Source of the DNA: a virus
Taxonomy: Duplodnaviria; Caudoviricetes
Virus record (IMG/VR): IMGVR_UViG_3300012665_001002
Coordinates: 1 to 27,874 of that record
Strand: one strand, 5' to 3'
DNA length: 27,874 nucleotides
Part shown: piece after piece, positions 3,911 to 13,817 of the stretch
Layout: every line of letters begins with the position of its first letter
Numbering within the stretch: position 1 is the stretch's first letter
Notes under the pieces: generated by a model
What the model was told of the DNA's origin: nothing
Database searches by the model: none
Seen by the model: only the letters and a program-made list of their open reading frames with translations
Position numbers and translations under genes: made by a program

Positions 3911-4282
3911 ATGATGGAAGATAATACACCCAAAATTAGAAGGATTTGCTCAGCGTGTGGTGCTTCAAAGTTATTGAAAGATTACATTAAATGTGTCCAA
4001 TGTATTGATGGTTATAGACCAAGATGTAGACATTGTATTTCTAATAAAATAGAAGCTGTTTATCATACGCCAAGAAAAAAGTTAGAGTATGATGATAATT
4101 TATCAATGTATGGAGTTGGAAAAGATGCTTATATTGAAATGTATCAGTTTCTTGAAAAGATTGGGTATGATTTAACCAGACCAATAGCTGAACAATTTGC
4201 GGAAAAATATAATCTAACTATAAAAGAAAGATGTAAGTTCAAACAAAATAAATATAATCCAAAAAATTTGGGATTGATTTGA
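3911..4282 (+). CDS. Zn-finger protein (start may be 3914)
   Basis: CSAC, CVQC and CRHC motifs. Confidence 0.7.
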   Translation: MMEDNTPKIRRICSACGASKLLKDYIKCVQCIDGYRPRCRHCISNKIEAVYHTPRKKLEYDDNLSMYGVGKDAYIEMYQFLEKIGYDLTRPIAEQFAEKYNLTIKERCKFKQNKYNPKNLGLI

Positions 4283-4310
4283 TATTTTTGTTGTATTTGA
4301 TATATTTATA
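4278..4310 (+). promoter_or_regulatory. Promoter candidate TTTG-N19-TATATTTA for the rep leader
   Basis: TTTG at 4278-4281 and TATATTTA at 4301-4308; same geometry as 5830-5860. Confidence 0.6.
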
Positions 4311-4410
4311 AATGTCCCTCTTCACATTAAGGACATTAAAAAAATTATTGAAACCCTTGTATAGTAATTCTTGAAGTGAAGAGCAAGAATGAAATACAGG
4401 GGTTTTTTAT
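4311..4410 (+). ncRNA. Predicted structured cis-regulatory leader RNA: two hairpins with complementary loops, loop-E motif and U-tract
   Basis: Stem 4311-4317/4331-4337. Stems 4351-4362/4394-4405 and 4367-4373/4384-4390 flank AGUA/GAA. Loops CUCUUCAC (4318-4325) and GUGAAGAG (4376-4383) are exact reverse complements. Confidence 0.75.
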
Positions 4411-4413
4411 ATT

Positions 4414-4914
4414 ATGAAAGATAATAGAAGTACAAAAGAAAGGGGTTTAGTTCTACCCAAAAACTTCGTTGAATCATATTTGAATGATTTAACTGATGAA
4501 GAACAATTAGGTATCATAAACGCAATATTCACTTGGTATATGACTGGTGAAGCACCTGAAATCCAAAATAAGATGGTTAGAGTATTGTTCAACACAACAT
4601 TAGGTTTCCTTGAATCATCCAAGAAAAGTTACGAAGATGGTAAAACTGGTGGAGCACCAAAAGGAAATAACAACGCAAAAAAAACAACCCCCCTTGTTTT
4701 AGAAAACAACCCCCCTTATTTACAAGAACAACCCCCTTTGAAAAATGAAACAACCTTAAGAGAAGAGAAGAGAAAAGAAGAGAAGAGAAAAGAAGAGAAA
4801 CTAGAAGATAATATAAATGAAATTAATTTTTTTAATTATACAAATAAACCAACACCAGACATTGAAGATGTATTGGATAACTTATTATTAAAATTAGGCG
4901 GTAATGGAAAATGA
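4414..4914 (+). CDS. Replication initiator-like protein (DUF6291-like N-terminal domain)
   Basis: LTDEEQLGIINAIFTWYMTGEAP...GKTGGAPKGNNNA resembles recalled DUF6291; internal iterons; EEKRK-repeat linker typical of phage replisome organisers. Confidence 0.75.
   Translation: MKDNRSTKERGLVLPKNFVESYLNDLTDEEQLGIINAIFTWYMTGEAPEIQNKMVRVLFNTTLGFLESSKKSYEDGKTGGAPKGNNNAKKTTPLVLENNPPYLQEQPPLKNETTLREEKRKEEKRKEEKLEDNINEINFFNYTNKPTPDIEDVLDNLLLKLGGNGK
4681..4757 (+). repeat. Four iterons at 22-bp period; putative replication origin
   Basis: AAAACAACCCCCCTT (4681, 4703), AGAACAACCCCCTTT (4725) and GAAACAACCTT (4747). CAAC cores at 4685, 4707, 4729 and 4751. Confidence 0.8.
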
Positions 4915-5356: not shown

Positions 5357-5428
5357 AAGAGGGGGGAAGCCATTCTTACTTAAGTTCCCATGTTCATTTA
5401 TTTTTTTTTTACCCCCCTCTTTTTTTTT
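5357..5428 (+). terminator. Terminator-like stem with an unusually large 45-nt loop
   Basis: AAGAGGGGGG (5357-5366) pairs with CCCCCCTCTT (5412-5421); T-run continues to 5428. Confidence 0.55.
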
Positions 5429-5800
5429 ATGACTTCAACAAATTCATTATATAATTTTTTAGAAGTTATTGTTCAAGACAATTTTACTTATAACTTTCCC
5501 ATCAATGAAGTAAGACTAGAACTTATTAACTTGATGATGTCCCAAGATGAATTTATTTATTTTATGCAACAAGCACACAATAAGCTTGTTAATTCACATG
5601 GCAAAATAACCGCCGATATTTTTACAACTGTTGTGTATAAGGACTTTGATGTTGTAAATAACGACCCAACGCAATTAGAGTATGTAGATTTCGTTTTAAT
5701 CCTTGATTCAATAATAGATAAGCTTGAGAATTTGAGGATAACCAGAGTACCTCCAAACTCACCAGATTACGAGGTGCTTTCTGTTATGTCTAAACATTAA
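5429..5800 (+). CDS. Hypothetical protein (start moved from 5390 to 5429)
   Basis: The upstream MFIYFFFTPLFFF is just the translated hairpin and poly-T; MTSTNSLY... is more plausible. Confidence 0.6.
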   Translation: MTSTNSLYNFLEVIVQDNFTYNFPINEVRLELINLMMSQDEFIYFMQQAHNKLVNSHGKITADIFTTVVYKDFDVVNNDPTQLEYVDFVLILDSIIDKLENLRITRVPPNSPDYEVLSVMSKH

Positions 5801-6416: not shown

Positions 6417-6897
6417 TGAGCAATGGGTAAAATCATTTAGCTTTCCAAACTATGAGGTAAGTGATACTGGAAAGATAAGAAGATTAAAAAACCAAAAAGA
6501 ACTCAAGTTAACAACAAATAGTTCATCTTATGTTGTTGCTAGAATCTATTATAACAAAAAGAAATATACCAAGAGTATATCTAAAATGGTTTGGGAAGCA
6601 TTCAATGAAACCAAATGTACTGAGACAATAGACCACATAGACAGGGACAAATCCAATAATGCATTATCAAACTTGCGTTGTATCAGTTCTAAAGAAAATT
6701 CTTCAAATAGAAATATTTATCGTAAGAAGTATCAATTAACAAATGATATAAAAAAAGAGATAATAAATAAAATTAAGAATGATAATGTTAGTACAGTCAA
6801 GATATGGAAAGAGTATGGTGTACCAACAAATTATATGAGTGTTATTCTTAAGAGAGGTTCTTGGAACAAATTTTTAGATGACAAACAAGGAATATAA
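6409..6897 (+). CDS. NUMOD4-HNH homing-type endonuclease
   Basis: EQW...PNYEVSDTGKIR (NUMOD4), IDHIDRDKSNNALSNLR...EN (HNH) and an HTH-like C-terminus; start moved from 6295. Confidence 0.85.
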   Translation: MHNEQWVKSFSFPNYEVSDTGKIRRLKNQKELKLTTNSSSYVVARIYYNKKKYTKSISKMVWEAFNETKCTETIDHIDRDKSNNALSNLRCISSKENSSNRNIYRKKYQLTNDIKKEIINKIKNDNVSTVKIWKEYGVPTNYMSVILKRGSWNKFLDDKQGI

Positions 6898-7369
6898 TAA
6901 GTTCAAAGAAGTAGCAATGAAAATTTGTGGAGGTGACGAAAGAACCCAAGATTTATTCCACGATGTATTATTACAATTAAGTTCAAATGAGAAATATAAC
7001 CTGCTTGAAGAAAAGAGCAGGTTATATTTTTTTATTAGAACAATGACTAATCAGTTTTATTCAAACAACTCAGCATTCTATAGACAATACAGAAGAATGG
7101 CTTTCAATGAAATAACAAATATGTCTGATAAAATAAATGAAGAGTATATTGATACACCAGACATTCAATGGATTAAAGAAACATTAAGTAATGAAACAAA
7201 GAACAATCCAAAATTCTGGTATGAAGAGGGGATATTCAACTTATACATAGAACATAAAAAGATAGAATCATTACATAGAAAAACCAGAATACCAAAATAT
7301 TCATTAAGAAAAACAATAAACGAAATAAAAGTGTTTCTAAAAATAAAATGGGAGGAACAAAATGGTTAA
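6878..7369 (+). CDS. ECF/sigma70-like factor
   Basis: Region-2-like AMKICGGDERTQDLFHDVLLQL...YFFIRTMTN and region-4-like IESLHRKTRIPKYSLRKTINEIK; 163 aa. Confidence 0.7.
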   Translation: MTNKEYNKFKEVAMKICGGDERTQDLFHDVLLQLSSNEKYNLLEEKSRLYFFIRTMTNQFYSNNSAFYRQYRRMAFNEITNMSDKINEEYIDTPDIQWIKETLSNETKNNPKFWYEEGIFNLYIEHKKIESLHRKTRIPKYSLRKTINEIKVFLKIKWEEQNG

Positions 7370-12161: not shown

Positions 12162-13817
12162 ATGAGTATAACACTTGATATAAGCCAATCACCTATTTTG
12201 ATTAGTCCATCAAACACTAATCATATCTACAATGTTAGAACCACAGATAGTGGTTATACATTAACTGACTTCCAATACATTTGTGATGTGTATGAAAGAC
12301 CATCAGAAGTTGATTGGAATAATAACAATTATGCTAACAGAATAGCAAGGTTGAAGATATTACCTAACACATATGGTAATGCAATTTTAGACCTTGAGGA
12401 GATTGTTAGAACATTACTCAATGCAAACCCAAGATTTACGGGAAGCACATATCCATATCTAAACCCCGCATCTGATGTGAATAAAGTAATCACATTAGCA
12501 AGTGGGGAAGCAACCATTGAATATAATGGTAGTAACTTATGGGATAGTGGTTCACCAAATGCTTCAGTTGACCAATTATGGCATATCCAAGAATATAGAG
12601 CAATGTTCGGTTATTCTTATTTGTCAGGTAATTCAATTGTGGAAGTAGTAGATGTAATCGCAGAATATCAACCCCAATCAGTTACCATATTTCCTGGTGT
12701 TGATAATAAGTTGATACCAGCACCATTCTTAACAGGAGCAACACCAGTTACAGGGTCAACAGCAATAGGTCCCAACTGGTTTCAATATAATAACCTAAAT
12801 CATTTATATTATGATTTATGGAGACACCAATATTTTTCAGGACAATCACACACAGATACTAGTTGTAGTTATGATGTAGATTATTGTTCCCCATCAGAAT
12901 TATTAAATGCTGCGGGTAGATTATATAAGATTATTTCACAGCCTGATGTAGTAGATACAAGAGTAAGAACAAGAAAACATCATCCTGATTGTCCTATCAT
13001 AGTTTCATTTTTGAATGGGAAAAACCCTTATTTTGTTAATGATATCTATAGTTTAGCTATCCGTGCTAGTGATTCTGTTCACGGAAATTACACTTATTCA
13101 GCAGAAACGCTAAATAGAATAGATACTGCATTACCTACAGATATTGAACCAATAAATTCAAGATTTAAGATGGGGGTATTCTATCTCCCATATAATGTAA
13201 CTGATGACGGAACAAATATTATCCCAACTGATGCAGAGAAAGTTTGTTTCTATGGAACTTCATATCAAGAAACAAAAGATGAAAGATTAGCATTCTCAAA
13301 CAGAACAACTGAAATATTGGAGTTTGTAATGCAAGAAAGAAGCTGTGTAAATATCCCCGTTCATATATTATTTTTGAATGGTAGAGGTATGTGGGACACT
13401 TATACATTTGGTGGTAAGACAGCAAAAACTTTGGATATTACAAGACCAAGTTATAGACAAGAAATGTCTTTGAATAAGCAATTCTACAATGTAGGTTCTT
13501 TTCAAAGGGGAACAAGAATATATGAACAAGAACTAGAAGAGAATTGGGAATGTCAAACTTGGTATATGAGCCAGAATGATGTTACAATTATGGAAGAAAT
13601 ATTTATGTCTCCCGAAGTGTATATTATTGACGGAACAGTTATTAAGGACCTATCTTGTGTATCTTGTCTTAATGAAGTTAGATTATACCAACACCTTATA
13701 CCTGTTGTTATCAAAGACAAAAGTTTCAAGGTATGGAACAAGCAATATGAAAAATTATTTCAATATAAACTAACTCTACAATATGCAGGGTTTAAGAGAT
13801 ATAGAACGCAAGGATAA
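12162..13817 (+). CDS. Virion tail structural protein
   Basis: 551 aa; C-terminal FLNGRGMWDTYTF...EIFMSPEVY recalled from Bacteroidota phage tail proteins. Confidence 0.6.
   Translation: MSITLDISQSPILISPSNTNHIYNVRTTDSGYTLTDFQYICDVYERPSEVDWNNNNYANRIARLKILPNTYGNAILDLEEIVRTLLNANPRFTGSTYPYLNPASDVNKVITLASGEATIEYNGSNLWDSGSPNASVDQLWHIQEYRAMFGYSYLSGNSIVEVVDVIAEYQPQSVTIFPGVDNKLIPAPFLTGATPVTGSTAIGPNWFQYNNLNHLYYDLWRHQYFSGQSHTDTSCSYDVDYCSPSELLNAAGRLYKIISQPDVVDTRVRTRKHHPDCPIIVSFLNGKNPYFVNDIYSLAIRASDSVHGNYTYSAETLNRIDTALPTDIEPINSRFKMGVFYLPYNVTDDGTNIIPTDAEKVCFYGTSYQETKDERLAFSNRTTEILEFVMQERSCVNIPVHILFLNGRGMWDTYTFGGKTAKTLDITRPSYRQEMSLNKQFYNVGSFQRGTRIYEQELEENWECQTWYMSQNDVTIMEEIFMSPEVYIIDGTVIKDLSCVSCLNEVRLYQHLIPVVIKDKSFKVWNKQYEKLFQYKLTLQYAGFKRYRTQG

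Follow-up and report, generated by a model that had tools for sequence, protein, structure and literature searches.

A family of kissing-loop leader RNAs at the head of phage replication operons

RNA control of replication and the phage genome under study

Control of replication by RNA has so far been known from a few plasmids and from P4-like phages, in enterobacteria and Gram-positive hosts. In phage P4, the CI RNA is described as pairing with seqA upstream and seqC downstream, upon which the replication operon is terminated, a step thought to be premature termination (PMC4825925). In IncI plasmids control is ascribed to a leader peptide, a downstream pairing partner and the Inc RNA (PMC4705826), and in pT181 and pIP501 to a terminator in the rep leader with two folds and an antisense RNA (PMC8383071). 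The put RNA of HK022, two hairpins behind an early promoter with a U-rich site downstream, binds the polymerase (PMC9378689), and CopG is presented as an autorepressor of rep operons (PMC12361487; all five sources in the sections available to us).

In this work we describe a leader element at positions 4314-4408 of the window, by which we mean the whole stretch of 27,874 nucleotides that was analysed. Comparative sequence evidence indicates that the phage replication operons which carry it share a genuine family of kissing-loop leader RNAs, as yet uncatalogued, and we consider it likely (roughly 75%) that this RNA acts in cis to gate the operon at a terminator-like hairpin. The original prediction could not assign the element to a named RNA family, and the searches agree: against Rfam 15 the best score in the window was 20.7 bits, with all scores far below the gathering thresholds, a further 8 and 18 loci gave no family, and in three loci from cultured phages only a tRNA passes. 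A weak overlap with the Bacteroides sRNA BTnc231 (21.5 bits against 80.4) was judged to be due to chance. The element is not described in the literature searched, which included the available sections of PMC10085705 (with one supplement), PMC9723704 and PMC12361487. The supplements of Fremin 2023 (PMC10690425) and Weinberg 2017 (PMC5737381), two sources partly available to us, could hold it; four supplement files of the former gave no match, and its alignments could contain the motif as an unnamed candidate.

With 27.9 kb and a 35-nt terminal repeat, the window makes up a complete circular phage contig, which encodes a portal, a terminase, a protease and a tape-measure protein. The window ORFs that were scanned include no recognised integrase or partition gene, leaving no evident need for the copy-number control that the original prediction had considered. 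Its G+C content is 33%, a Shine-Dalgarno-like word precedes 1 of 32 starts and A stands at −3 in 18 of the 32; together with the promoter box these features point to a host among the Bacteroidota (compare PMC6847099, in the part available).

Boxes of the type ATATTTAT occur at 1369, 4302, 5101, 5854, 7866 and 22588, and lie 5-28 nt ahead of five start codons besides the element's own, which suggests that the leaders are very short and that a host-promoter variant with TTTA for TTTG is typical of the phage; five more matches sit far from starts. ORF 6878-7369 appears sigma-like by eye and has no Pfam or PHROG match. A minus-strand promoter motif has its sole copy in the genome at about 4247-4258, directed away from the leader and antisense to ORF 3911-4282. 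A second leader or terminator may lie at 5357-5421, where a long hairpin (−17 kcal/mol) has a 10-bp stem that includes a G6/C6 run and a loop of 45 nt, and a U-run behind it leads up to a likely ATG at 5429. A 23-nt inverted repeat (187-209 and 1321-1343, 96% complementary) is placed between two coding regions.

Anatomy and covariation of the element

The element and the gene behind it comprise the following features:

4301-4308, plus strand: Bacteroidota-type −7 promoter box TATATTTA, a variant of TAnnTTTG, from the sequence
4314-4334, plus strand: hairpin 1, conserved core, with a 4-bp stem GUCC/GGAC (4314-4317/4331-4334) and a 13-nt loop
4318-4325, plus strand: kissing strand 1, CUCUUCAC, in the loop of hairpin 1
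4335-4350, plus strand: single-stranded, A-rich linker of conserved length and partly conserved sequence (alignment A1)
4351-4405, plus strand: hairpin 2, with a 12-bp terminator-like lower stem, an AGUA/GAA internal loop, a 7-bp upper stem and a 10-nt loop
4376-4383, plus strand: kissing strand 2, GUGAAGAG, in the loop of hairpin 2
4403-4410, plus strand: U-tract (7 U in 8 nt) behind the lower stem's G-run, probably an intrinsic terminator or pause site
4414-4914, plus strand: DUF6291-like gene, 166 aa, probable replication initiator, from Pfam and fold matches
4680-4755, plus strand: three direct repeats with 22-nt spacing inside the gene, possible iterons, from the repeat family

The folded element spans 4314-4408 and consists of a weak 5' hairpin, the A-rich linker, which takes part in no conserved helix, and a long hairpin running into the U-tract. 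If TATATTTA occupies −12 to −5, as the promoter box does in F. johnsoniae (PMC6847099, in the part available), transcription would start at 4313-4314. Hairpin 1 had been read with a 7-bp stem, which does exist at 4311-4337 around a loop at 4318-4330; the conserved stem is its inner 4 bp, and the inferred start falls inside the longer one. By itself this hairpin reaches only −3.8 kcal/mol, and its loop (module X) is made up of eight pairing letters and then five free ones. All parts of hairpin 2 are present as first described, with a lower stem at 4351-4362/4394-4405, an upper stem at 4367-4373/4384-4390, an internal loop of AGUA (4363-4366) and GAA (4391-4393), and a loop at 4374-4383 (module Y) of AA followed by eight pairing letters. 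AGUA opposite GAA between two helices is what we take to be the sarcin-ricin or loop E motif.

The loops form an exact 8-bp complement (4318-4325 with 4376-4383), as had been read. Computed as free strands, the kissing duplex has −10.1 kcal/mol, and a match of this length arose in 134 of 200,000 draws of random 13-mer/10-mer pairs from the window. Each kissing 8-mer is present once in the window genome, and a third site elsewhere in it was therefore rejected. The whole fold has −31 kcal/mol (z −4.6), with none of 200 shuffles equally good. The U-tract and the promoter box directly ahead of the element are likewise where the original prediction placed them, with six consecutive U at 4403-4408, the ATG at 4414 and the G-run of hairpin 2 stopping 11 nt ahead of it. 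A terminator scan, which takes only loops of 3-8 nt, did not call hairpin 2 with its U-tract; for a terminator speak the conserved U-tract and a match of model R2, described below, to a host attenuator terminator, but the lower stem closes a structured insert of about 30 nt. The linker of 14-16 nt seems long enough for the kiss and the full stem to coexist, as estimated from helix dimensions. A hammerhead-type ribozyme was rejected, no core being seen by eye against the consensus.

Copies of the window's form (the long form) were gathered by protein and DNA-pattern scans of IMG/VR and metagenomes, and 29 distinct ones, the window included, make up alignment A1, for which seven pairing letters were needed. 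Its four helices covary: 96.8% of 834 cells are paired, 20 of 30 pairs change two-sidedly, and none of 500 shuffles was as high. The kiss pairs without exception (232 of 232 cells), a completeness partly built in by the seven-letter rule, and shows two-sided change in five of its eight pairs; the 4-bp stem of hairpin 1 is paired in 116 of 116 cells, with three of four pairs invariant. As an independent check, a pattern of hairpin 1 and linker was used in which only two letters of the word were fixed. The partner hairpin is carried by 30 of the 38 loci found in this way, and the other 8 have no such second hairpin. In 92 sources, model R1 brought up no additional member whose kiss is broken. 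Two loci that have the linker and stem base in common with the element and no R1 or R2 score (L053, L035) were left out. In L053, at about 1040-1140 on the minus strand, a loop-E hairpin with the same stem base has a loop that, by eye, can pair just downstream and not upstream.

When the kissing columns are left out of the tree, the word has changed along it at least 14 times, yielding 11 words in 29 sequences, and 26 of the 27 pair-state changes of the kiss are two-sided, so that the loop-loop covariation expected from the original prediction is present in the homologues. Between close scaffolds two-sided change was seen in 23 of 184 cells of the kiss against 25 of 398 in the hairpin-2 stems, and one-sided change once in the kiss against 40 times in those stems. 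The excess of two-sided kiss change is modest (Fisher p 0.015); the edges are non-independent, and a distance without kiss columns favours the kiss. Three near-identical scaffolds differ by one to three kiss pairs. Such a pattern of two-sided change is as would be expected for a specificity word.

In the hairpin-2 stems G-U outnumbers A-C by 65 to 9, which marks the plus strand as the RNA. The loop E motif is present in the window as first read, but it does not define the family, since among the 29 copies it is as in the window in 25, inverted in 2 and without a clean motif in 2, and the swapped form described below is without it. A column-pair census of A1 and of the short-form alignment A2 detected no conserved competing helix of at least 4 bp, register slips aside. 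There is also no conserved upstream ATG frame in the 29 copies (ATG starts only); the window's own 20-codon frame starts at 4312, ahead of the inferred transcription start, and stops 39 nt short of the gene. The missing antiterminator helix appears to count against termination hindered by the kiss, and of the attenuator first proposed the U-tract still fits.

These results bear on the alternative that the leader is the target of an antisense RNA from the opposite strand, of the IncI Inc or pT181/pIP501 type. The location in a rep leader would suit it, and an antisense copy of hairpin 2 would bear the hairpin-1 word by construction, but neither an alternative fold nor a leader ORF accompanies the element. 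Moreover, an opposite-strand TAnnTTTR lies within 150 nt downstream in 10 of 29 copies against 41 of 127 background windows, and in a second set in 3 of 24 against 44 of 115, counts that promoters of other types would escape. We regard this alternative as very improbable. The IncI/IncB likeness drawn at the outset is not supported, given the lack of a conserved leader ORF, of a downstream partner in the window's form and of antisense promoter enrichment.

Short and swapped forms and the genes behind them

A short form of the element has a kiss of 6 nt with 6 nt and a 3-bp upper stem above loop E. The search patterns left its loops unspecified, and filtering for a closed stem and for hairpin energy gave 28 distinct copies, 27 of which have an exact upstream complement, the 28th being cut by a contig end. 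Among the 25 that were aligned, 97.5% of cells pair, with one row misaligned, and five of six kiss pairs change two-sidedly; loop E is invariant in A2, though the search pattern demanded the motif. The short form shows no excess of two-sided kiss change (9/78 against 17/207, p 0.37). With the short-form model R2 the window's element was the only match in the window (E 7.7e-5), the search patterns having had motifs in common with it.

Of the 25 aligned copies of this form, 6, which use three words between them, carry the word a third time at about −13 to −7 from the ATG; a control with foreign words gave 0 of 532 matches. Because this third site stands beside the start codon, hairpin 1 reads in these copies as a decoy that would keep the tip of hairpin 2 off the start region, so that the kiss would be the on state. 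For the window's form the longest match at a third site was 4.03 with own words against 4.05 with foreign ones, and the direction of the switch is consequently borrowed from the short form. A fixed set-point attenuator, in which the kiss would pre-organise or stabilise the terminator hairpin and the short RNA, leaving a constant low read-through with no input in trans, agrees with the compact fold, the apparent compatibility of kiss and lower stem, the conserved U-tract and the lack of an alternative helix. We consider it unlikely, since an ordinary hairpin would suffice without a strictly kept 8-bp tertiary helix (all 232 cells) and would not need a competing third site.

The third site and the lowering of initiation by structure near start codons in F. 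johnsoniae (PMC6847099, in the part available) would both suit a purely translational control, with hairpin 2 crowding the initiation region and the kiss altering access of the ribosome. Such a control seems distinctly improbable to us, given that the distance from stem to ATG ranges from 9 to 31 nt and, measured from the upper stem, reaches about 40-80 nt in the swapped form, while the U-tract still adjoins the stem.

The swapped form was found in two cultured phages of Flavobacterium sp. LMO6/LMO9, vB_FspS_tooticki6-1 and lillamy9-1, where it precedes a small ORF, a DUF6291-related gene and a primase; in MN812240.1 it lies at about 12,637-12,740. Its 5' hairpin has a loop of AA plus eight letters and on top of its long hairpin stands a 4-bp stem with a loop of eight letters plus five; as judged from sequence, these are the window's two loop modules with the hairpins exchanged and without loop E. 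It occurs in 46 Flavobacterium phage records at 84-100% identity, and a pattern scan gave 46 matches, 23 with an 8/8 kiss and 23 with at most four pairs. The 16 distinct copies, rows chosen for pairing, carry five words, one of them the same as a window-form word, and show two-sided change in five of eight pairs. The exchange of modules between hairpins fits competition for pairing, which tolerates it. Looser analogues, with 7- and 9-bp matches, stand ahead of the rep genes of elemoA and Cellulophaga phi13:2, and the rep gene of RAP44 is without such an analogue. Phage tooticki6-1 has, before gp032, a second leader of promoter, word and hairpin (L221 2615-2685, MN812240.1), with a 7-bp match GUCGUCG/CGACGAC, and this one precedes an HNH endonuclease gene.

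The letters UG-AA-GU..C-CA and AC are invariant and common to the window and swapped forms, and such invariance in the kiss and its surroundings suggests a fixed three-dimensional module, for which binding of a protein would be an equally good role. As in HK022 put RNA, the kissed module might be bound by RNA polymerase, or else by some other protein of host or phage, and alter elongation past the U-tract. Besides these letters, its work before unrelated genes and its place as the first thing transcribed, with two hairpins and a U-rich site just downstream as in putL (PMC9378689, in the part available), speak for this possibility. We nevertheless find it quite unlikely, because a single protein surface is hard to reconcile with modules that change place relative to the U-tract, with another kiss (6/6) in the short form and with a loop E that is inverted or missing in some copies.

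The element occurs once per genome: 15 of 15 long-form records have one match and none of four control records has any, and 16 of 16 short-form records have one strong match, two of them also a weak one. A multi-copy mobile repeat was rejected on this count. In the long form 20 of 29 copies have a TAnnTTTR box within 22 nt upstream and 26 of 29 are followed by a U-tract with 6 or more U in 8 nt; in the short form these counts are 16 of 24 and 17 of 24. Domains were searched in 42 of the 53 downstream proteins. DUF6291 was found behind 13 of 22 long-form and 6 of 20 short-form copies and primase domains in three; the others showed HTH, methyltransferase, HNH nuclease, small ORFs or nothing. PHROGs, given 23 proteins, marked seven more as initiators or DnaD-like loaders. 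Small first ORFs are followed by a rep-like gene in six loci, three of which have a primase or helicase behind that gene; in one locus (L172) no rep-like gene is in view. The element stands first in the replication operon, and the initiator or primase genes that follow it are unrelated. The unrelatedness of these families argues against binding by the downstream product, and autogenous control by the downstream protein was rejected.

Pfam DUF6291 matches the window's ORF with E 1.1e-5 and 25.9 bits, just below the cut-off of 27.2, and fold matches are to the viral models DUF6291, "DnaD domain" and "replisome organizer"; a fold search of the PDB gave a best Z of 5.3 and no clear match. In relatives its slot is held by PHROG initiators and DnaD-like loaders, with primase or helicase genes behind in some. 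The protein is by this association a probable replication initiator, the label first given to it, which rests on its neighbours and not on a solved relative. DUF6291 is named in no paper of the literature searched. The repeats at 4680-4755 may have an origin role, which we presume from the layout of lambda O.

A short terminated RNA about 270 nt from this repeat cluster would be compatible with something other than an expression regulator, namely an origin primer or R-loop RNA, a metabolite riboswitch or an inverted binding site at the DNA level. Lysine-type riboswitches combine loop E and a kiss, and the element recalls them in this. However, the G-U excess and the strand asymmetry point to RNA, the three forms have few letters in common for a ligand pocket, and the element also stands before small ORFs and primases; we give these options hardly any weight.

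Among 17 loci found through the window's protein, the RNA is present in 4, and in 6 an ORF of 44-77 aa lies between promoter and gene. Five of these small ORFs were scanned, of which one passes a ribbon-helix-helix cut-off and four give weak matches to such families. ORFs of this kind take the place of the RNA in L005 (2852-2986), L006 (1563-1757), L007 (2841-3011), L008, L009 (2756-2989) and L016 (2533-2688). Two of these RNA-less relatives have a conserved two-hairpin element downstream of rep (L005 3723-3802, L007 3749-3830), in which the second hairpin is terminator-like and the loops are alike, not complementary.

The window region and two short-form elements had no real match in cultured phages by blastn, and the window's ORF had none by tblastn. 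A pattern scan of genome contigs gave 18 matches, none with the fold, and the linker pattern in 301 Flavobacteriaceae-family genomes stayed at or below its reversed-pattern control. Model R1 had 0 matches in 5 Bacteroidota genomes, and R2 found one plain terminator each in sets of 101 and 151 genomes, 25-150 candidates being scored per genome. The only R2 match in the 101 genomes, all of the Flavobacteriaceae family, is the terminator behind a His-rich leader peptide. This histidine attenuator (L207, G060:C10:46181-46265) precedes a gene that is presumably hisG-like.

Proposed mechanism and comparison with known systems

Upon the promoter box, the fold, the 8-bp kiss, the U-tract, the operon-head position and the single copy per genome we build a mechanism in which termination, the direction of the switch, processing and action in trans are conjectured. 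Hairpin 2 with its U-tract would stop or stall many transcripts and leave an RNA of about 95 nt, and the intramolecular kiss would be the permissive state, allowing read-through or translation. Removal or exchange of its weak 5' hairpin would leave the short RNA with a free loop, and this loop would capture hairpin 1 on later transcripts while their own partner loop is still to be made. The output of the replication genes would then fall as phage DNA and leader RNA accumulate, and co-infecting phages with the same kissing word would be damped, the word setting specificity.

The element probably limits the amount of replication protein. The full chain of same-strand feedback, of the P4 CI kind, is possible, at somewhat less than even odds; we favour it because the known designs tested negative and the decoy reading gives the kiss as the on state. 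A self-kissed short RNA would be inert unless processed or exchanged, and this counts against the feedback. A wider idea, which we hold to be doubtful, is that a portable and position-swappable kissing module provides feedback free of antisense RNA and of protein, in which the terminated leader RNA would count genomes and shut the replication genes, the word would define exclusion groups, and the module would be exchanged in evolution with a CopG-like repressor.

The family represents a different design across many Bacteroidota phages, in three architectures, with a tertiary module that outlives the exchange of its halves between hairpins, and it appears to be interchangeable with a protein repressor. 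Such RNAs could account for the timing or capping of replication in small phages and for their exclusion of kin, and they would give compact, re-codable RNA switches for Bacteroidota genetics. The presence of the swapped form in cultured phages of environmental Flavobacterium strains makes the mechanism directly testable.

Among the described systems, the two hairpins right behind the promoter and the U-rich site downstream recall HK022 put; here, in contrast, the hairpins are about 15 nt apart and joined by the kiss, and the second is terminator-like. With the pT181/pIP501 leaders the element has a terminator-like hairpin in the rep leader in common, but neither mutually exclusive secondary structures nor an antisense promoter signal. 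Loop-mediated long-range pairing in a replication-gene leader is also known from the rep pseudoknot of IncI-alpha, IncB and IncL/M plasmids (ColIb-P9 repZ), whereas the element is without a conserved leader ORF, Shine-Dalgarno sequestration and an antisense promoter signal, and its partner lies upstream. Autorepressors of the CopG and omega ribbon-helix-helix type occupy the same slot in RNA-less relatives, but they are protein, not RNA, and one of the five scanned ORFs passes the Pfam cut-off. Satellite phage P4 immunity, compared together with P1/P7 C4 (Rfam C4), likewise places an RNA in the leader of a replication operon on the same strand, with a segment complementary to a site upstream and, in some short-form copies, also downstream. 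It differs in that CI is a processed multi-stem RNA, the element being a single long hairpin whose base is a terminator-like stem and which has no Rfam C4 match, in that the window's form is without the downstream site present in 6 of 25 short-form copies, and in that the hosts here would be Bacteroidota. The element is a member of no compared system and appears to work most like P4.
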